Shown here piece after piece: positions 856 through 22,009 of a stretch of 51,753 bases of DNA. The position numbers and the translations under genes are program-made. The notes under the pieces were generated by a model. The model saw only the letters and a list, made by a program, of their open reading frames with translations, was not told where the DNA came from and did not search any database. Source of the stretch: Neophaeotheca triangularis (Eukaryota). Numbering within the stretch: the first letter of the stretch is position 1; each line of letters begins with the position of its first letter. The stretch covers positions 1-51,753 of the forward strand of contig BAAIJX010000094.1 in NCBI GenBank assembly GCA_054600435.1, written 5' to 3'.

Positions 856-3800
856 TCAAGCCGTGCTAAAAGGACTGACAGGCTCGCCGTCAACCTCCCT
901 CTCAACCTCCCTCTCGACTTCGTCGGAAGAAGCTGCCGACGCTCTTCTGAAACCATCATACCCTGATCCATCGAGCCCAGAGCCCTCGCTCTCGCCCCTA
1001 CTCTTATTGCCATTGCTGCCACTGCCACTGCCACTGCCACTGCCACTGCCACCACCACTACCACTACCAACAACAACAACCGTAGCTCCATCGCCACCCT
1101 GCCCGACCGTCGAGCCAAGTGGCGCTATTACCGTAGACGCAGAACCCCCAGACCCGGAAGATAGACCGTGGTTGGCCGTGAAAGCGGCCTTGTTGGCGGC
1201 ACTAGCGCTAACAGCAGGAGGAGAGGTCGTCGCAACAGGTCCAGCTCCAGCTCCAGCTCCACTCGCAGACTTAGCGCCAGTGGCCAAGAGTGGGACATCT
1301 TCACTCTCCTCCTCGGGTATAGGAGCACAGTATTGCTTGAGAACCTTTTTCAGCTGAGGGCGGCGAATGGGTTTAGATCTGGATATTTTTTCAACGTCAG
1401 TTTGACCGTCTTGTCTCTAGGGATTCCAGTTTGTCGCAGCCAAACCAGTTTCGAGAGAAACAAAAGGGCGGGGGAAACGATAAACTCACAAGAAATAATC
1501 CATGCCACTGTCCAAACAATCCTTGATATTGCTCTCCTCGGCAAAAGCCGTAAGCGCCACAATGGGCGCGCGGTAGCCAATCTCGCGAATCAAACGCGTA
1601 GATTGCAGCCCGTCGACATTCGGCATTTGAACATCCATAAAGATGAGATTATAAGGCTGCGGCCTTGGACCTCCGTCATTGCCGTTGTCGTCGTCGTCGT
1701 TGCCGTCGCCAGTGCCCAGACTCTCTCGCACCAGATCCAGCGCTTCTTGTCCGTCTCGCGCGACTGTCACGTCGTAGATGTCTTCGAGTTTCAGCATGCG
1801 GAGTACCACTTCTTGGTTGACTTTGTTGTCTTCGGCGACGAGGACGCGAATACGGCGTTCGTGGATTTTCCGCGTGGCGGAAGTTTGCATGGCTTCCATG
1901 GCGGCGGGTTGGGTCGTGCGGGTTTCGAGTGGTTGGGAGGTGGCGAAGAAGGGTTGAGAGAGGCCGATTAAGCGCGGTTGCGAGTCGAGTGTTGTGGTTG
2001 CTGGGGTGGGTTGTTGAGGGGGTGGTGGGGTTGAAGAGGCGTGGGTTGGGGTGGAGGAGGTTTTGGGGTTGGAGTTGGCGGGTGGGGGTGTGGAAGGGGG
2101 GGAGAGTTCGGAGGGGGCGGAGCGTGAGTGCTGCCTGGCTGGGGGACGTAGGCTGCCAGAGTTGAAACTTCCCGTGCGGCTGTCGTTGTCGTGGAAGGAG
2201 GTACTGTGGCGGTTGGTGAAGGTTTCCCCTGTTGTTGCGCCGGCGTCTCGACGCAGGTCTAGTGAGGACGAGGCTGTCGAGTCTGCGCGGTTCTCAAGAT
2301 GGCGAAGGGGAATCTTCATGGTGAAAGTGCTGCCTAGACCGGGCGTGCTCCGGACGCCAATGGTGCCGCGCATTAGGCTTGAGAGCTGCGAGCAGATGCT
2401 CAATCCCAAGCCTGTGCCGCCAAACTTCTTGCTTAGGCCTAGGTCGCCTTGGACAAAGGGCTCGAAGATGCGTTGTTGTAGGTTTTCAGGTATACCTGGG
2501 CCAGTATCTTGGACTTGGAACTCGAAGAACAGGTACTTGCCCGGGGGAGGACTGTTGGTGCGTTCAGAAGCCGTGGCGTGGGCGTAGGGTCTGTCGATTG
2601 CGTTAATTGCGTTGGCGGTGTTGGTAGGGTTATTGATGGGTAGGGTCGCATTCGAGTCCTTGTGCCTGGAACGTTGTCGAGACTGTCGGGACTGGACGCT
2701 GCCTTTTCTAGAGCCAACGTCTGGAATTTCAGGAAGGCATCTAATAGTCAGCACCACCGATCCACCTGGCGGCGTAAACTTCAGACTGTTGGAGACCAAA
2801 TTGATGACAACCTGCAGTATGCGATGCGTATCACCCCAGAGAATCATGTCCTTCATCCTGCCCATGCCCGTGGGTCCATGGGGGTTTCGTTGAGGCGAAC
2901 CACTGAGTTCATTACCGCCGAACTCAACACCCTCCCACTCCACCCTCAAATCAATCTGCCCTTCTTTCGCTTGCTTGTCAAAGATGGCCAGAATCTGCGA
3001 ACTGATATCACGCAAGCGAAACTCCTTCTCATCCAAGCTCAAATGCTGTCCGACCTGATTCTTGCTGAAAGTTAGGAGATCCGTGAGGAGGTTCAGAAGC
3101 AAATCACCACTCTTGTAGATGATGCCCAGACTTCTCTTCAGCCGTATCGGGTCATCTTCCTGCATGCACACAGCACACATTCCGAGGATACCGTTCAGCG
3201 GCGTCTTCAATTCGTGAGAGATGTTTGCGATGAAAAGCGTCTTGCTCTCGTTGGCAGCCTCGGCAGCCTTTTTGCTGAGTTCCAGCTCCTGGGTGCGTTG
3301 CTGCACTCGCTCCTCCAGCTTCTCATACTGCATCATCAGTTCGTCAGACATTTCGTTGAAAGTATACGTCAAATCCGTCAGCTCGTCATTGACAAAATGT
3401 TTGCGCTCTCTCACTTTGCCCGGAATGCGGAAAGCGCGCCGCCGTCGCTCTTCGCGCCTAGCTTCCTGCTGGGCGTTGCGCTTTTTTCGCCACTTGGTGA
3501 TGGGGTTGTGAAAGCCTTCCTTCTTCGCTAGCACTGCTGCCCCTCCGCTGGGATCGTTGTCATCGCTTGGTCCATCGCGTTGATCCGAGGAGGAGAAAGA
3601 GTCGAAGCTCGTCCTACTAAAGCTCGAATTCGGCGGTTCCACGGACTTCTTGGTCGCCTCTCGCAAGCGTCGTATGGGTGCGCTACCGAAGTGCGCGATA
3701 GGGTAAGAGACGATGACCATGAAGGCTGCCGTTGCGATAACGGAAGCGATCAGAATGTTTCGAAGGTGATCGATTGGACGCCAAACCTCGCTTCGCGCTT

Positions 3801-10044: not shown

Positions 10045-13000
10045 ATGACATCCTCCAACATGTCTCGAGACCAACTTGAGGAGGATCTGGCCTTCACTGA
10101 AGTCATGCTACAGTCGCTCGATTCAGGCGCCGACGATTATGCTGTGAGACTGGGTGAACTTCTCGCAGAAAAGGAGGATTTGCAGAACAAGCTCGAAAAC
10201 TTGAGCAGCGCCTCCTCGCAACAACAGAATCAGGCGCGAGGATCATATCAGAACGGTGACGGCTATAGTAACGGCAATGCCCATCCACAGAGTTCGGATT
10301 TCTGGCAGACTGCTATGAACGGTCACTATGGTGGTGCTGGTGCTTCTGGCAATGGAGCACCTGCTAGCAGTAGGACGGTATCTGCTGCTTCGTCGTTCGG
10401 CAACCAGAGCAACAAGCGTCCACGCCCTCAATCTTCGACGTTGGGGATTGAAGAACGTCCATCCAAGATTCGTACGCCTGACCATTCTTCTCCTGACGAC
10501 GATACCTCTTCCATGGACGACTTTGAGCTCATCGAGAACCCGGATGCTGCCATTACTGAGAAGCACAGGAAGCGCCAGCTAGAGATTGAGGCGACTATCG
10601 CGCAGAAGCGCGCGGCAGTCCAGGCTGACGCCGAATTTGCCCGACGTTTCAGCCAGCAGAACGGCTACCAGCAGGGGTCGACCTCGTCAAATTCCAGCTC
10701 CAGTAATGGTCATGTTCAAACCACGATCGGGCATGGAGGCAGCTTCGCCAAGCCGCCTCCGTCGCAGGTCAAGACAGAATACTCAGGACAGGTGGCTCCT
10801 TCTCCAATGCGAAATTCGATGACCAGCAGGCCTTGGGAAGCAAACTACAACGCCCGCACCCCGCAGGTCAAGCCAGAACCGGGACCCAGCCGTCAGCCAC
10901 AGCGTCTTCCTCAGCGTCTGCACGATACTGGCACTGTCGATCTTACTGCTAGTGACAGTGAAGATGAGCCTCAATTCGTAGCACGACCTACTCCTACCGT
11001 GCAGCGTTCGAACCCGTATCCATACGCAAACTCCACTCAACACACACCCCACAGACCCTCTATGCCTGGCAGCTACCCGTCTGCGTATGGAAATAACAGT
11101 CCGTATGTGTACGGGAACGATGGTCCACGTCTGCCTCCGGTTATGCAGAATGGCGGCTATAACCAAGCTCTTGCCGAGTCATTGAGGGCAGCCAGAAACG
11201 CCGCCAGCGGTGCGTATGGTCAGGGCATGTCGCATCTTCAACAGCTTGGTGGCTTGATCGGCGGAAGTTCAGCAGCTGGCTTATCCGCGTATGGTGGCGA
11301 AATTTCCGACGACGACGATGATGACGCGCCGAGGTGGACTGGTACTAGGAATGTCAGCCACTACGCTGGTATGGAGGAACTTTACAACAGCCGATACCGC
11401 GAGATTGCTTCGTACGATCCGGCCAAAACCAAGGAGGAGATCAACAGTCTCCTTGAGAATATTCGCCCGGACGAGGACTTACCCGCCGATGCGCTTGTCA
11501 AAACCCCTGAACCGATGTCGATCAAGCTTCACAAGTACCAAGAGATGGGTTTGACTTGGCTGACCAAGGCTGAGGAAGGCAAGAACCAGGGTGGTATACT
11601 TGGTGACGAGATGGGTTTGGGAAAGACAATTCAGATGCTTTCACTCATGGTCAGCCGCAAGTCCGATGATCCTCGCTGCAAGACCACCTTGATTGTTGCG
11701 CCTGTGGCACTGCTCCGTCAGTGGAAACAGGAGATTCAGCACAAGATCCGGCCAGGCAGACACGCTCTCTCTGTCTACACCCACCACGGCGCCTCCAAGA
11801 AGCACGACTTCAACGACTTCCGTCATTACGATGTTGTCTTGACTACTTATGGTAGCTTGGCTTCTGAGGTCAAGAGGCAGGAGAAATTCCACCTCCGCAA
11901 AGCCACAGACCCGCAAGCGCAGCCTCGCAAAGACGAGAAGTGTGTTCTGATCGGCCACGACAAACTCTGGTATCGCGTCCTGCTCGACGAAGCTCAGTGC
12001 ATCAAGAACAAGGGCACGCAAACTTCCAAAGGCGCTTGCATGCTCAACGCCAAATACCGTTTCTGCATGACCGGAACTCCGATGATGAACAACGTTGAGG
12101 AACTCTTCTCGCTTATCAAGTTTTTGAAGGTCAAACCTTACTGCGTTTGGGAGAGTTTCAGGAAGGACTTCACTCAACCCCTCAAGAGCGGCAACGATGA
12201 CACCAAAGACCGCGCAATGCAGAAACTGCAAGCCCTCTGCAAAGCCATCATGTTGCGTCGTACCAAGAGCTCCACGTACGAAGGCAAGCCCATATTGGTT
12301 TTGCCACAACGCACTACCGACACGGACAATGTGGAGTTCTCGCAGGATGAAACCGACTTCTACAAAGCTCTGGAGTCGCGCTCGCAGTTGCAGTTCAACA
12401 AGTACCTCAAAAAGGGCACCGTGGGTACCAATTACTCTGCCGTTCTTGTGCTGCTTCTCCGTCTTCGCCAGGCTTGCTGCCACCCTCATCTCATCCGCGA
12501 CTTTGGCGTCTCTGCTTCCGCCGATATCACTCCCGATGCTATGGTCGAGCTGGCGAAGCAACTAGAACCTCATGTCGTCACTCGCATCAAAGAGACCGAA
12601 GGCAACTTTGAATGTCCCGTGTGTTACGACGCTCAGACCAACCCTGCCATCTTCTTCCCATGCGGCCACGACACTTGCCAGGAATGTTTCGCCAAGATCG
12701 CCGACCCCGCTGCCGCCCTTCAGCAGGGCAATGAGGGCAGCGTTGCTGCCAGGTGTCCCGAGTGTCGCGGTGCTATCGATCCGAAGAAAGTCACGGACTT
12801 TGCCAGTTTCAAGAAGGTGCACATGCCGGAGTTGTTGACCGAGGCGGAGAGAGCGGGGATGCAAGAGGAGGATGAGGATAGTGATTCGGATAGCGAGGAC
12901 GATGATAATGAGGATGAGCCGGAAAGTTGGGATGACGTTGACGAGCAGGGTAATCTGGATGGCTTTGTTGTTGGTGATGAGGAGGTTGAGATGGACGTCA

Positions 13001-14091: not shown

Positions 14092-14462
14092 TACTGCTGA
14101 CGACGACGATTCCTCGCTTCCTTTTCGGCATCGGCCGTGAAGCGGAAGCCGGATTTGAACCTCTCTTACTTTTACTTTTACTACTACTACCACACGACAT
14201 GGTGCGGCGTCCCGGGCGCTTTTGGGCTTTCGCCAGACTATGAACAATAAATTTCGAGCGCAATATTGATACCCCAGGGATTGGCAAGGCAGGGTTGCTT
14301 ATGTATCTTTCACCCCATGGCGGGCTTTCGACGGATGAACGAACGAACGAGTGGGCGGGAGTGTGTCGGGCCGTTGGCGATGGCGGCTGCGTTGCTTGAC
14401 CCTTGCATTGTTGCATGCACCTGCTGAACTATCATCACGATCATTATCAAATTACGATTACG

Positions 14463-14506
14463 AAGATGAGGATGAAGATGAAGATGAAGATGAAGATGAA
14501 GATGAA
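14463..14506 (+). repeat. (GATGAA)n microsatellite
   Basis: About 7 tandem copies in the intergenic region. Confidence 0.85.
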
Positions 14507-15284
14507 ACTGCGGGTGGAGAGGGTGCATGCATGCAGGCAGGCAGGCCGTGGGTCGGCTTTGACTCTCCTAATTTCTGAGAACATGGGAGATGGAGATGGG
14601 GTGTGCATAGTATAGTATAATATAGTATAATATGATGTGGGTGGGTGTCTTTATGTGCATAGCTGTTACGATGCCATCATGATCATATGAAGTTTTTCTC
14701 TTTTTCCAATTATATTGTGCTAGAGAGGAAATGGGGACGGCGTGTGGTAGTTGGCAACCAAGCAAGTCATCATGGCATGATTCATTCACTTTACGGTATG
14801 TGCGCGTGTTGTAGATGGTAGGTTGCTTTTGCATTTAGATTTTGTTGCTACTTTATAGGGGGTTTTGGCTTTGTTGGCTGGGTAAGGTACTTTCCCACTT
14901 TGACATCAAGTCGTCTCTTATCCACGGCCGTGTGCTAGTGAAAAGAATACCGAGCTCGCGGCAGGAGATTTGAACGTCGCTTGCACGCCAAGATACGCGC
15001 ACGTGAAGAGGACATGTAGGGCGGGGTTCGCAACTCACTTGAAAGCCGGCCTCGAGGAAGAAGGATCTCAGGAGCCTCTTCAGGACCGCGAAAAAGCCAG
15101 GTTAAGAATCTAAGTCCGTCTGTACTTTAGGAGATAGGGAAGAGTAGCACCAACACACAGCAGCAGCGAGTGGCTATCGACCCCAGCCCCGACCCTCTGC
15201 CTTCTGCCCTCTGCCCGCTCCCTCGGCAAACCCCTTTGCGCTTTCTTTCCCCCCGAATCCCCCATCACCCCAAAGCCCCCCCAC

Positions 15285-18200
15285 TCACGCTTTCCCCTTC
15301 CCTCTCCCACCAACCCCCCTCCCCTCCCCGGGAACCAACTTGTTCAACTTGCGAATCTCCGTCCAACGACTCAGCGCCCCCAGTTCCAACAAATTCACCC
15401 TCCTCACCTTACCACTCGGATTCCCAATCACCACAGCCTTGAAAGCCGGATCTTCTGTCCCTTCCTCGGGCAGCGAACCGGGGAAAGCGGCACTAGCACC
15501 GCCACCGGCCAGAGCGCGACTCGGTCGTCGGCTACCGTGCAGAGTGCCGTCGGGGATGACTTGGACTTCTTTGAAACGGCTGAGGACGAGGATGAACATG
15601 ATGGTGATGAGGAGTAGGATGCCCGCGACGATGGCCGTGGCGGTTTGCGCTCCTAGGCTGCGGGTGATGTCGCCGCTGACACCCGTGGCTGCGGCGGCGA
15701 GGAAGAAGCCGAAAGCTTGGGCGGCGAAGAAGCCGGCGCAGATGCGTGGGAAGGCTGAGTAGTTTGTGCGCCGGCGGAGGTTGATCTCGCCGAGGGATTG
15801 CAGGCGGTGTTTGGTGTTGACGCCTGGTTGGAGGTCGCAGGTGTCAAAGGTTTCCATGATGATGCCGATGCATTCTGAGATGGCGAGGTTGGAGAGAAAG
15901 CCGACGAGCGCGGCCATGGTGCAGGGGACGCCCCAGTGGACGGATTGCCCGGGGGAGGCGAGGGTGTAGGCTAGGCCTGCGAAGGGGAGGAGGATGGAGA
16001 AGAGGCTGCGGCGGAGGAGGTGCGAGGACCAGGTTACGCTGGGTTGGAAGGTCATGCTGTCGGTGCGTTGGGGCTCGAAGCGCGAGCGGGAGAAGAGGTT
16101 GGCGTGGGAGAGAGGGATGGCGAAGAAGGCGCCGATGGCGAGCGAGAGGGCCGCTAGTCCGACGTATTGAGGGTGCCAGCGGTATTCGCGGGACATGAGG
16201 GCGCCGATGAGCTGGCATCGTTACTGTTAGCATGATTAAGTCCGAATCGTGGCTGGTTGGACTCACCAAAATCACAAACACCACTTGGCAGTAAATCCAC
16301 GCCAGATAAACCATCAACACCGCAAACCCGGGCTGAAATATCATCCTCTTCATCAACACCACGCCCGCCCAAGCCTCGTGCCACCACCACTTGGGCCCTT
16401 CGTTGGAGATATGCAACTTGATCTCGCCCCTGGCAACCCGTCTCCTCAACTTCTCATCCTCATCCAAAAAGTGATGGATAGAGCGTCGATACGGCGCGCG
16501 CCTTGTTTCCGGCGCCACCACGTTGACGAGCAAGAAGAACGCCAGCAAGATCACAACAATGTAAAAGCCCCACCCGGGGTCCAAGTGATCGATGATCGTG
16601 GCCCCGATCCAGAACCCAATACTCAGACTGCCGACGAAACACCAGCTCCATAGACCCAACCACATCCCCATGCCCCCGCCTTGTCTGCGAACATCGTCTG
16701 GATTGACGACTTCTTGGTGCGGCTTGTAGCTCATCAGCGAGGCGCCGTACAGATCAAGGAGCGTGGGCAGGAAGTTGATGTTGGCGAAACCCATGGCTAT
16801 ACCGGTTAAGACTCGAGGGAGAAGGAGACCGACGCGGTAGGTGGCGGTGTCCGGGTTGCGGTAGCTCGAGACGACGATGGCTTGGGGGAACTGCAAGGGT
16901 AGCATTACGGCGAAAGCGACGAGGGTGTAGGGTTTGCGGCCGTGGAGAAGAGGGAGGGGCCAGGCTAGGAGGGTTGTCAAGGCGAGGCCGATATAGAGGC
17001 TGGACAAATATCTATTAGCTGTGGCCAAGTGAGTTGTCCCAGCATGAGGCGACTTACAGCACATTCCCCAAGATGACGTTGTTGTTCAAATCGGCCAGCT
17101 GGTATTGGATCCTGGGCACTTCTCCGGCCTGTAGAAACTAAAGTCAGCACAAGACTCATCTATTGCGCGTTTACCACCTGTCCCCGTTCAAGCAGTTGCT
17201 GTGACCGAATGTCAACCCCTCGAACCCCAGCTGCTGTCCCTTTCACATCACGCGGGAGTCCAAACTCCAGTCCAACAGCCTGCCGACACAACGCCTTCAT
17301 TTGTTATCTTCACCGCTCCCGCTCCACCATCCTGAGCCCATTACCCCATCCAAACCTTCCTGGCCTATCCCCTCCCTCGCTCGTCACCCTAACCACACAC
17401 CAGAAAAGAAGAAAGACAAACTCACATAAATCCCACTAATCAACCCAATAAACACAGTATTTGCGCACGCGATAACCGCCGTAATCCTCTTGCGGTACAA
17501 GTTCTACTCCCGCGCAATCGGCTGTCGTTTATGATGCCTTCCTAAACTGAAACCCTGGTTTTCCCGCAAACTGATATGGCGGCGTCGGGGATGCCGGAGG
17601 TCGAGGCCGTTTTGGATTCCATTACGGGAGATGGTGGTGCGTCGGGGACCGTTGGTTGGGGTGGGGGTTGAGGAGCTGGCGGAGAGGGGTGTTAGTTCTG
17701 AGGCCTGAGGCGGGAGCTGTTGGGAATGCGGGGGAGGGGGGGGGAGGGAAGGGCGGGCGCTTGGGTTCGAAGCCTAGGAAAGAGCATGGGACCAGTGTGC
17801 GATTGAGCTTGGCGGGGTTGGGATGATAGAGATGTGGAAATCCAGAAGAATAATACATACCTATTTCCCCCTCCCTCCCCAGTCCCCGTAGCGGTCGAGT
17901 CCACTCTCCTCGGCTGATCCATCTGGCTCGCAGTCACAGCATGCAGAATCCTCGGATGCTGTTCGACGCGCTTTCGCAAATGCAGGTGACCCGCTTCCGG
18001 CGCTATACCTACCATGGCCGCTCTGCTTTCGCTACTGCTGCTGCTGCTCGATGGAGAGTCTGCGCTATGTAGAGTCACCATTGCATCGACTGGGTCGATG
18101 TGCATGAGGGGCGAGGCCTGGGACTTGGGTTGCGGTGGCTGTAGGGTTGGTGAGGTGGAGCGGCGCATGGCGCGTTGCATACCTTCCTTTCCCGGGGCCC

Positions 18201-19878
18201 AATAGGCGAAGTCTCGGACTACGAATTCAGCTGATGGCGGGTGGTAGAGGACCGACGGCGTTGGGTGGATTGAGCCGGTCTCACTGGCTGGTTTCTCCGT
18301 TCCTACGCCCAAGGGTTGACGGCTTGGTTGCGCGCTGTTTGTGAAGAGTGTCGGGACTGTTTCTTCGGAATTTGCGCGGCTGTGGTAGGGGGTAGAAATG
18401 TCGGAGTGCGAGTCGAGGTATTCGATCGTGCTGTCGTCGTCTGTAAGATCGTCGCTGGCGTCAAGGTAAGCTTCGGAGTCAGAATGAGACTGTGGGCGGA
18501 CGGGCGGGGCGTAGGGAGATGTTGGGGCCTCGGAAGGCCCGGTAGCTGTGGTTATCAGAGGCTGGCTCATTCTGGTATGGACGGTGCTAGCTTTGCGAAG
18601 AGTTGCTGCGGCACTGTCGAGGATATTCGTTGCTTCGTCGCTTTGGCCACGTTCGGCGGCTTGTTGGGCTACGAGGACTGCTTGATCGACTAGATCGCCT
18701 AGGCCTATGACAGCGTTGTTGAGCTCGGTTGGGTGGACTGAAGAAGTGGAAGAAGACGGCGGCGAGAGGTCAAGATGCTCCGGCAGGGGCATGAGCGTGT
18801 CTTTCCTGGTTATGGCTCGCTCTGGTGATCTGAGTGGCTCACTGCTCGACGGCGTCTCCGAGGTAGACAGCATCATGTGACTTGGCATTCCGGTAATCGT
18901 TTTTCGTCTAACGGAAGGTAGGGTGTCATCAGTGGCTGGCGAAGTAGCCCTTCGCGACACTGCATCCACAGCAGGCAGTTCTCGCAACTCAACTTCGTGA
19001 TCGCAGGAGGTACAGCTAAGCGAGCTTGGACGACTTGCTTCAGATCCATAACCCGGTAGGACGGGATTCCAAGTCGCATGAACGCCTTGGGCTCGCAAGT
19101 CCGCTTTCGTTTTAACATACTGGCTATATGAGTCGGATGACTGCTGCACCTGACGAACGAAGGGGGCCGAATCGCGCCTCACGGAGCCCGTTGGTGAGCT
19201 TTCGGCTTCCGTCGAGGGCATGGTTGCGCTGTACTCCGAGGGCGAGGATTCAGCCGTATTGATTGGTTTGGCTTTAGGCTTCTTTAGGGTCGCGAGCGGC
19301 GTCGCGTCCTCCTGAAAGCGTGATTGACGTTCGCCAGCACGAGAGGTTGGGTTAAAAGATCCGCGGCGTGCTATTGGTTCCTTCTTCAGCTCACGAACAG
19401 ATGGTGTGGACACGGTCGGACGTAGAGTCGAATCTGCGTCAAATCTGGGCTTGCCTTGCACTTGCTCTGCGGCTGTTGGAGATAGGATAGGCTGTTCCAC
19501 GTCGCCTGTTGCTGGCTGCGGCAAGACAGTCTCTTCGAGACTGAGTTGTGAGTCGAAACTACCAGGTATGAAGCCCGGTCCACGAGCAAGCTTCGAACCT
19601 TTCTGACCATCGAGCCAGGGAAGCTTTTTGCGAGGCACGGCCATGCTTTCAACGGAAGCATGCTTTCCTTGAGCACCTGGCAGCGCAGAATGACCACCTG
19701 CTGTGATGCCCGTTGCACGTTTGTTGACACCGCTCGCAGAGGAGTCAGAGGCCACCGAGACGCCTTTGTCCAATGCCGCTTTGCTCGAATGTGCGATTCG
19801 GCGAAAGCTCCCACTTCTACGATTCTTGTTGCCCGAGTCCGGCGCCTGACCCGGTAACGTTTGGTTCATCATCACCAT
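15285..19878 (-). CDS. MFS-domain protein with long disordered N-terminus, AMD1-like; exons 19878-17861, 17675-17426, 17128-17058, 16999-16267, 16211-15285; one in-frame TAG at 17506-17504
   Basis: Four introns, each with GTATGT/GTGAGT/GTAAGT donor, CTAAC/CTGAC/CTAAT branch and CAG acceptor, all phase-compatible (3999 nt). Spliced product reads ...QPIARE*NLYRKRITAVIACANTVFIGLISGIY|AGEVPRIQYQ..LHGRKPY.. with multiple TM helices. Start codon uncertain. Confidence 0.85.
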
Positions 19879-20475: not shown

Positions 20476-21369
20476 TCATTCCTCATACCGAACCTTGCCC
20501 TGACTCACGTCAGGATAAACATCAAACCTCCTCTGCCCATAAATCGGGATGCCCTTCCTAGTCTCCTCGATAGTCTGCCCATCCAATTCGGCGTAAGTGA
20601 TCCCCTCCTCGGGGCCCAACTCACTCACAATCTTCGCATTCGGCTGCACAACCATCGAATGCCCCCAAGCGTTGTAGTCCGCTTGCATATCTCTTGCCGG
20701 ACTGCACATACCAACGTAGACCTGGTTATCCATAGCCCTAGCTCTAGCTTGCAGTTCCCAGTGCAGCTCGCCCGTTGTCAAGTTGAAAGCACCCGGGTAG
20801 ACGAGCAAGAAGCAGTCCTTGCGCGCAGCGATCATTGCAAGTTCCGGGAAACGGACATCGTAGCAGATGGCGACTGCGATCTTGCCGTATTCGGGGAGGT
20901 CTACCAGAGTGACTTTGTTGCCCGGGGACAGCACTTCGGACTCGTGGAAGGAGATCTTACCCGGGATATCGATATCGAAGAGGTGCACTTTGCGGTGGGT
21001 GGCCAGGAGCGTGCCGTCAGGGCTGAAGGTTAGGGAGGTATTGTAGTGTTTTTGTGTCTCTGTCGACCATTCGGGGATGCTGCCGCCAACGAGGTAGGTT
21101 TTTGCTTCTTTGGCTAGAGCGGAGAGGGCGTGGAAAGAGGGCGATTGCTCTTTGGTGGGCGGGGAGGGTAGTAGGGTCTCGGCATATTTGGGAAAGTGTT
21201 TGGTGCCGTACGGGGAGTTGAAGCATTCAGGGAGGACGACCAGGTTGGCGCCGTTAGAGGTTGCTTCCAATACTTTGGACCGGGCTCGCGCGAGGTTTGC
21301 TGCCTTGTCGGCGCCGGTGGACAGCTGCACCAGCGCAAGCTTCAATGGCTTCTTCAGGAGTTTGGACAT
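20476..21369 (-). CDS. NIT3: Carbon-nitrogen hydrolase, omega-amidase Nit2/NIT3 type
   Basis: Catalytic triad motifs LPECFNSPY, HRKVHLFDIDIPG and ICYDVRFPE. Probable start MSKLLKKPLKLALVQL; the frame is open upstream to 21564. Confidence 0.88.
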   Translation of the reverse strand: MSKLLKKPLKLALVQLSTGADKAANLARARSKVLEATSNGANLVVLPECFNSPYGTKHFPKYAETLLPSPPTKEQSPSFHALSALAKEAKTYLVGGSIPEWSTETQKHYNTSLTFSPDGTLLATHRKVHLFDIDIPGKISFHESEVLSPGNKVTLVDLPEYGKIAVAICYDVRFPELAMIAARKDCFLLVYPGAFNLTTGELHWELQARARAMDNQVYVGMCSPARDMQADYNAWGHSMVVQPNAKIVSELGPEEGITYAELDGQTIEETRKGIPIYGQRRFDVYPDVSQGKVRYEE

Positions 21370-22009
21370 ATTCTCTGCTTGACCGTCAACGAGGACTTGT
21401 TTCCAGACGATTGGATAAGGTATCTGGACGGCTTGTCCGAAATAGGAAGTGATGTCGACTGGAGCCTGGGGCGGGAATCTAGTAAGCTTACTTAAGCAAG
21501 TCGCCGCCATTGGAGTCCAGTTCACCACATGAGAATGAGATATACAGAATGAGATATACAGCATCTACCTGTCGGTACCTTCTCTATGCTTTTCTTCCGC
21601 CCACGACATAGCACCGACACATCTCGCAAATGTATCTTTGGGAGCCTGTGCGCAAGCAACGCACATCACAAGTCGTTTTGGCCGTGGGAGACGAACGTAA
21701 AAGCAGCCCGGTTTCAAGGCGTATGCTGAGGGACAGAACAACGATGGTCGCCCTATGGTAAACGTGTGATGATTGTGAGCATACAGCCATGGTTGTAGTG
21801 GTGTCAACAAAATTCGCGTCAGGAATGTAGACCATTCCGCTACAGGTAGGTTATCAACAAGCCAAAGGCTTCGGCCGGCAAGCATGTATGTTTGCCTCAT
21901 CCTCTTTGACCATCCCCCTTCTCCTCTCTCTTTCCCTTCTTATTTCCTCAATAATCGGAATCAAAATATCAGATTTACCTAGGCAAACCCCCACCTACAC
22001 TCACCAACC

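Follow-up and report, generated by a model that had tools for sequence, protein, structure and literature searches.

The closest described counterpart of the gene considered here is AMD1 of Fusarium graminearum, an ascus-membrane transporter of the major facilitator superfamily (MFS) that belongs to the late sexual stage and consists of a long disordered N terminus followed by a membrane domain (1386 aa; 11 transmembrane segments) (PMC5496914). Its gene carries a premature stop at nucleotides 631 to 633 (codon 211), in the N-terminal region, which is corrected by adenosine-to-inosine (A-to-I) editing of the mRNA; the editing level is given as 97.6% at 8 days post-fertilization, both the editing and the function were shown experimentally, and the edited UAG had previously been hidden by a false intron in the annotation (PMC5496914). 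Here we analyze a stretch of 51,753 nucleotides from the black yeast Neophaeotheca triangularis (GenBank assembly GCA_054600435.1, contig BAAIJX010000094.1, hereafter the window), in which a gene of the AMD1 type is interrupted by a single in-frame TAG at an otherwise invariant tryptophan codon. The stop appears to be maintained by selection, and it is probably recoded to tryptophan by A-to-I editing of the same restorative kind.

Restorative editing in the sexual stage has been described for F. graminearum, where 71 pseudogenes with premature stops are restored, and for other Sordariomycetes; these stops arose within the Sordariomycetes, and the editing system itself is assigned to the latest ancestor that the members of that class share (PMC10776026). 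According to the same account, the corrected TAG codons derive chiefly from TGG, the same sites have been struck independently (six independent origins for the stop of PSC33/FgAMA1), the stops are favored by selection, and many of the targets contain disordered regions (PMC10776026).

An in-frame TAG at an invariant tryptophan codon

The stop lies at positions 17506 to 17504 on the minus strand, where it forms codon 730 of the transporter gene within the letters CAG CCG ATT GCG CGG GAG TAG AAC TTG TAC CGC AAG AGG ATT. When exon 2, with the TAG read as tryptophan, was searched against 1.84 billion representative proteins, 312 matches reached an E value of ≤0.001, and tryptophan is aligned to the focal codon in all 150 of the best of these 312 homologs. 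The surrounding motif is P-I-A-R-[DEN]-W-x-x-x-R-K-R, and AMD1 of F. graminearum likewise encodes tryptophan (TGG) at the aligned position.

The gene model comprises five exons on the minus strand, separated by four GT..AG introns with branch sites of the CTAAC, CTGAC, or CTAAT type. Its coding sequence of 3999 nucleotides holds 1332 codons, with codon 730 as the sole internal stop and codon 1333 as the terminal one, and the 602 codons 3′ of the TAG are all open. Exon 1 (17861..19878, with the ATG at 19878) encodes a 672-residue N-terminal region that is rich in S, P, T, and A and has no Pfam match. Exon 2 (17426..17675) carries the conserved ISLRENQGFSLGRHHKRQPIARE-[TAG]-NLYRKR motif (TAG at 17504..17506) together with the first transmembrane segment (residues 737 to 755; 17429..17485), which begins seven codons past the stop. 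Exon 3 (17058..17128) agrees with the deposited protein model, P0154. The MFS core is divided between exon 4 (16267..16999), which encodes its first half, and exon 5 (15285..16211), which encodes its second half and the C-terminal tail and ends in a TGA at 15287 to 15285. The introns measure 185 (intron 1; 17676..17860), 297 (intron 2; 17129..17425), 58 (intron 3; 17000..17057), and 55 (intron 4; 16212..16266) nucleotides. A hydropathy scan found nine distinct strongly hydrophobic segments, plus weaker ones, all past residue 737, where the first of them begins, and none upstream; the TAG thus divides a 729-residue region that matches no domain from the entire membrane domain. The Pfam MFS_1 match to exon 4 alone (E value, 5.6e-05) is under the gathering score for that piece, and the homologs of the exon 4 protein carry PF07690.

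The first-pass annotation of this DNA had proposed, from the letters alone, that a single TAG replaces a tryptophan codon in an MFS gene with no other damage, and the five-exon model and the homologs bear this out; its boundaries for exon 2 and its placement of the stop at codon 730 of 1333 also agree with the model. It had further called the gene AMD1-like and surmised a dothideomycete host. N. triangularis is indeed a member of the Dothideomycetes (order Neophaeothecales), and the gene is closer to AMD1 than that wording implied. The modeled protein is 47.7% identical to F. graminearum AMD1 (FGSG_10094; P0391) over 625 residues (694 to 1317 against 579 to 1197; E value, 0). In a maximum likelihood tree of the exon 4 region with 69 rows, the topology mirrors the class phylogeny and every named species appears once; AMD1 is placed within the Hypocreales and the N. 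triangularis gene within the Dothideomycetes (support of 99/96 for the dothideomycete clade and 100/94 for the sordariomycete clade). The exon 4 protein is 60 to 77% identical to the named dothideomycete orthologs. Directly upstream on the same strand lies a gene for a carbon-nitrogen hydrolase of the omega-amidase type (20476 to 21564, minus strand; PF00795; E value, 4.5e-66), and in Ascochyta, Caloplaca, and Teloschistes the database models either merge this CN_hydrolase with the transporter or mislabel it, which indicates that the pair is conserved across classes. Because of this identity, the class-like single-copy tree, and the conserved neighbor, the gene is, as judged from these comparisons, an AMD1 ortholog in the same single-copy orthologous group as FGSG_10094. 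The expectation that its stop would align with the edited codon of AMD1 failed; the latter is codon 211, and F. graminearum has tryptophan at the site studied here.

The deposited model P0154 (1176 aa) is identical to exon 1 at its N terminus and then passes from ...PVDAM directly to AGEVPRIQ..., bridging 17129 to 18085 (minus strand) by one long intron in which the last part of exon 1 and the whole of exon 2 are lost, so that the stop, the invariant motif, and the first transmembrane segment are all missing from the annotated protein. Such a model, together with the constraint on both halves of the gene in relatives, could be taken to mean that the halves are made separately, as a 729-residue N-terminal product and a membrane part that has its own internal start or its own transcript, or that a splice variant removes the stop. 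This is very unlikely. The first in-frame methionine past the TAG lies beyond the first and second transmembrane segments, in every lineage the conserved peptide extends to either side of the stop, and the motif and first segment that P0154 lacks are present in 88 of the 120 listed homologs. Splicing to the AG of the TAG itself was also tried: joined to exon 1 (phase 2), it enters a frame that meets a TGA within 20 codons, and an intron of 50 nucleotides from a GT at 17553 to the same AG is likewise out of frame.

Exon 2 is likewise absent from the model of Acrodontium crateriforme (P0156), the named relative that stands closest, and from one Hortaea model (P0174), and such exon-skipping models could conceal further stops. 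The open reading frames of the closest relative overall (P0155/P0403; 91% identical in exon 4) begin downstream of the focal codon.

A shared stop followed by purifying selection

A second, diverged sample that bears the same organism label (X2) covers positions 17237 to 17721, in contigs of about 100x depth, with 12 differences, each of them listed; none lies at 17504 to 17506 and the nearest are 5 and 9 nucleotides away, which confirms the TAG in sequence data. An error of sequencing or assembly that masks a true TGG, for which nothing speaks beyond its prior probability, is extremely improbable, since an independent and diverged sample has the same codon; another run, X1, may itself have supplied the sequence of the window.

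The presence of the TAG in both strains, whose divergence is about 3% in introns and at synonymous positions, means that the stop predates their split. Among the 20 listed coding differences between the window and X2 that lie 3′ of the TAG, synonymous changes outnumber non-synonymous ones by 14 to 6 (20 of the 23 differences of the X2 contig over 15200 to 17161 are listed), against a neutral expectation of 24 to 29% synonymous changes (binomial P, 2e-5 to 2e-4). All three indels are intronic (introns 1 and 2 only) and no frameshift separates the strains; intron 2 differs by eight substitutions and one indel. For the N-terminal region, three synonymous and four non-synonymous differences are listed, from partial sampling that extends up to 18224. 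As judged from the two strains, the TAG is real, lies in an intact ortholog under purifying selection, and is maintained rather than decaying.

This pattern bears on the idea of a null allele or young pseudogene, by which a transporter with an ascus function would tolerate nonsense in an effectively asexual fungus and keep its frame intact only through its youth. The description of the order, which includes no sexual morph (PMC7426231), would fit such an allele, as would the absence of reported mRNA editing in the Dothideomycetes, the lack of RNA coverage of the site, the commonness of TpG-to-TpA transitions, and a deposited annotation that had to skip exon 2. We nevertheless consider it unlikely, because a stop older than the strain split is followed by the excess of synonymous changes (P ≤ 2e-4) and by no frameshift, and because of the stops in relatives described below.

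In X2, the stretch of intron 1 from 17692 to 17897 is represented by two contigs with depths of 50.3 and 43.7 (compared with about 100 elsewhere) that are set apart by a 10-nucleotide and a 1-nucleotide indel, which suggests two haplotypes in the sample.

TAG at the focal codon in other lineages

Metagenome contigs were scanned with a degenerate DNA pattern for R-[QK]-P-I-A-R-[DENK]-(TAG or TGG)-x-x-x-R-K-R, which yielded 35 loci, all of them clear homologs, with TGG at 29 and TAG at 6; the pattern admitted only these two codons at the focal position, so that TGA and TAA were unsampled there. Two of the TAG loci (L028 and L031) are mutually identical and adjoin Neohortaea acidophila and a TGG locus in the tree. 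Another identical pair (L014 and L024) forms a group with L009, a locus with TGG, next to Elsinoe and Myriangium, and the single sequence L007 falls in the same Myriangiales-adjacent group. The last, L013, is sister to F. graminearum AMD1. With Neophaeotheca included, TAG at this codon has at least four independent origins, three in the Dothideomycetes and one in Fusarium.

The genes around these stops are otherwise open, their intactness being known within 1.5 kb on each side. The TAG is the sole stop in the 683 aligned codons of L007, the 686 of L014, and the 873 of L013, and the remaining apparent stops of L028 fall in two short introns. Recurrence of the same stop in at least three further lineages with otherwise open genes argues against a null allele. 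Between L007 and L014, which both have TAG, the synonymous divergence (dS) exceeds 1 and is saturated, and the ratio of non-synonymous to synonymous divergence (dN/dS) downstream of the stop is 0.026, a value that would mostly reflect earlier history if the two stops arose separately and recently.

The loci L007, L009, L014, and L024 each consist of one open frame of 683 to 689 codons that spans the positions of the usual dothideomycete introns 2 and 3, which are thus absent in this Myriangiales-related lineage.

Stops across the gene family

All frames of the 35 loci and the window were scanned for stops against about 400 homologous proteins, and a stop was retained when the residue aligned to it had conserved neighbors. 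Every credible stop is a TAG, and every one is aligned to tryptophan in the nearest homolog; they fall at three sites and occur in 18 of the 36 sequences. The scan found no credible TGA or TAA and no frameshift among the 36 sequences, a uniformity that again speaks against inactivated genes. Two weak TGA matches (L001 at position 227 and the window at 1889) proved to lie in introns that frame-blind database proteins include, and they were rejected.

Site A is the focal codon before the first transmembrane segment, with TAG in seven sequences including the window. Site B lies in the membrane domain (TWR*ALL), where six Sordariomycete-like loci have TAG (L005, L021, L034, and L025, each at 1202 on the minus strand; L016 at 1471 and L033 at 1840 on the plus strand). 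The residue there is tryptophan in Cladorrhinum (P0069), whereas most family members have V, T, or I; the window gene has V.

Site C lies in the N-terminal region (SSPYL*H), with TAG in five dothideomycete loci that group with Cryoendolithus (L003 at 796 to 798, L004 at 170, and L011 at 796, plus strand; L008 at 1983 and L030 at 2243, minus strand) and tryptophan aligned to it in P0022. The best named matches of these five sequences are all Dothideomycetes. They diverge by 5.6 to 17% in DNA, all keep the TAG, and none has another stop. Downstream of it, dN/dS is 0.04 to 0.12 in the MFS exons and 0.11 to 0.22 between the stop and the first transmembrane segment, and the TAG has persisted through a dS of 0.1 to 0.7, which is difficult to reconcile with a young pseudogene. 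In these alignments, site C provides the clearest evidence that TAG in this gene is decoded in Dothideomycetes rather than being a defect.

Decoding could also proceed without editing, by translational readthrough of the UAG with a near-cognate or suppressor tRNA that yields some full-length transporter. Selection downstream of the stop demands decoding and is silent on the route, and the editing machinery is unproven in Dothideomycetes, both of which leave room for readthrough. On the other side, every maintained stop is a TAG at a tryptophan-aligned codon, as editing predicts, and the tryptophan is invariant. In yeast, UAG readthrough mostly inserts glutamine, tyrosine, or lysine, and tryptophan goes in at UGA. 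The codon after the stop varies by lineage (AAC, AAT, CAT, or TCA), and there is thus no common readthrough context; the use of TGG in sister lineages makes a suppressor acting across the genome unlikely. Taken together, we regard readthrough as rather unlikely.

Sequence context and predicted stem around the UAG

Edited sites in F. graminearum prefer C or U at −2, U at −1, A or G at +1, G at +2, and A or G at +3 and +4, with the combination of preferred nucleotides at −1, +1, and +3 described as rich in editing sites, and more than 62% of the edited sites lie in predicted hairpin loops (PMC9600606). The first-pass annotation had pointed to a favorable context of U before the adenosine and purines after it. 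That much holds for the focal site, G-U-[A]-G-A-A-C, at −1, +1, and +3, and the match to the F. graminearum preferences ends there, at three of the six positions; those at −2, +2, and +4 hold nucleotides that are depleted in that species.

The focal adenosine is placed in a 3-nucleotide loop of a predicted weak hairpin. The UAG is enclosed by a 5-bp stem whose 5′ arm UUGCG (17513..17517, minus strand) belongs to the Ile-Ala codons ATT GCG and whose 3′ arm CGCAA (17490..17494, minus strand) belongs to the Arg-Lys codons CGC AAG; it arises from synonymous codon choices. In an association that was spotted post hoc, after the data had been seen, all five pairs of the stem are present in 6 of 7 TAG sequences, compared with 1 of the 29 that have TGG (Fisher P = 2.4e-5), or in 4 of 5 TAG versus 1 of 17 TGG lineages (P = 0.0033). 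The TAG sequence L007 folds with a different stem. Median fold energies are −16.9 kcal/mol for TAG and −13.0 kcal/mol for TGG sequences, a weak difference (5 versus 23 distinct sequences; one-sided P = 0.03), and the 61-nucleotide fold of the focal site does not exceed shuffled sequence in stability (z = 0.01). At site C, where fold patterns were likewise noticed post hoc, a CCU/AGG stem in L004 closes a 7-nucleotide loop, CUAGCAC, with the adenosine as the third loop base; the loop of L008 has 6 nucleotides, and the adenosine of L003, L011, and L030 is either base-paired or part of a different element.

A proposed model of restorative A-to-I editing

The sharing of the TAG between strains, the purifying selection downstream of it, the recurrence of the same change, and the stem linked to TAG together make a strong argument that the stop is maintained and decoded. 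The best explanation of how it is decoded, to which we give moderate confidence on the strength of these comparisons, is restorative A-to-I editing to tryptophan, which is preferred because editing alone predicts TAG, and not TGA or TAA, at tryptophan codons. The invariant tryptophan codon before the first transmembrane segment would have mutated from TGG to TAG in N. triangularis and then been maintained, and the full transporter would require that the UAG be turned back into a tryptophan codon. A putative activity of the tRNA-deaminase type may act on the UAG inside the local stem-loop and deaminate A17505 in the mRNA, converting UAG into UIG, which would be read as UGG. The unedited mRNA would yield at most a 729-residue soluble N-terminal fragment, or be degraded, and the stop could thereby serve as a stage-specific gate on the transporter. 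We infer the A-to-I route, the stage specificity, and the restoration of tryptophan alike.

Several points weigh against this proposal. The interaction of Ame1 with Tad3 is reported to have arisen in the Sordariomycetes, with editing in Pyronema (Pezizomycetes) as a separate origin, and the sister class Leotiomycetes has, in that account, not yet yielded any editing (PMC11087585); we found no report of A-to-I editing in Dothideomycetes in the open-access literature, as far as its text was accessible. The Neophaeothecales are described from asexual endoconidial forms only, and their description contains no sexual stage (PMC7426231). No RNA contig covers 17426 to 17584, and the contigs of runs X2, X3, X4, and X7, compared from among nine runs, show no splice joints, which says nothing on expression or editing; the marine metatranscriptome X7 gave two 151-nucleotide contigs of exon 1 and a 40-nucleotide piece, X3 gave one 168-nucleotide contig, and X4 gave eleven short contigs. 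To these are added the depleted nucleotides at three context positions, a focal fold as weak as that of shuffled sequence, a stem association noticed only after the fact, a site A scan confined to TAG and TGG, and a tally of strain differences that draws on 20 of 23 in its contig.

A wider proposal extends the model beyond this one gene: Dothideomycetes would edit mRNA outside the sordariomycete lineage, AMD1 orthologs would be a repeated target with a co-evolved stem-loop each time, and stage gating would presumably go with a hidden sexual cycle. For this larger picture we see the probabilities as evenly balanced. For N. triangularis itself, the maintenance of an ascus-type gene hints at a sexual stage that has gone unseen.

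Other observations in the window

Pairs of long frames joined by a single TAG were also considered elsewhere in the window (37 of 124 junctions). Two of these, near 12564 on the minus strand and at 3073/3529 on the plus strand, were translated, looked antisense to other genes, and were dropped. Downstream of the transporter gene, at about 14400 to 14580, lies a short-period repeat that reads HLHLHL..., EDEDED..., and MKMKMK... in different frames.

Implications and comparison with known systems

Fungal A-to-I mRNA editing is currently regarded as a sordariomycete innovation with a separate pezizomycete origin, tied to the association of Ame1 with Tad3 (PMC11087585). TAG codons maintained at tryptophan sites in several dothideomycete lineages under strong purifying selection are hard to explain without recoding. 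If that recoding is editing, the system would have an older origin than assumed, a second origin, or another enzymatic route. The result also suggests that a black yeast of which only asexual forms are known has a working sexual program. Since gene predictors bury such stops in false introns, as happened both to this gene and to its F. graminearum counterpart, counts of such cases in annotated genomes are probably too low.

Compared with AMD1 (FGRRES_10094/FGSG_10094; PSC04), the N. triangularis gene belongs to the same orthologous group, has the same arrangement of an N terminus that matches no domain followed by the MFS core (1332 aa here), and contains one premature TAG that gene predictors concealed in a false intron. 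It differs in the position of that stop, which is codon 211 in AMD1 and codon 730 here, at the tryptophan before the first transmembrane segment where F. graminearum has TGG. It differs also in its host, a dothideomycete whose order is described without a sexual morph, and in its evidence, as editing and function are proven experimentally for AMD1 and are putative in N. triangularis. Set beside the restorative editing of F. graminearum as a whole, the locus shares a TAG derived from TGG, repeated origins, stops that appear to be kept by selection, and a target with a disordered region; the origins described there are all sordariomycete, whereas three of the four focal TAG lineages and site C are dothideomycete. 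Known fungal readthrough involves leaky UGA contexts and produces C-terminal extensions. The present case resembles programmed readthrough in having an in-frame stop with a downstream part under selection, and it departs from the fungal examples in the use of UAG, in the mid-gene position at an invariant tryptophan, and in the varied codons that follow.

The nearest likeness at the level of the edited site is to the targets of the FgTad2-FgTad3-Ame1 complex, with which the focal adenosine shares U at −1, purines at +1 and +3, and a place in a predicted hairpin loop (PMC11087585, PMC9600606), and from which it differs in the depleted nucleotides at −2, +2, and +4 and in the weakness of its hairpin (z = 0.01). 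By our own comparison, the adenosine of site C in the L004 loop, one of the five sequences of that clade, is placed like position 34 of a tRNA anticodon loop.

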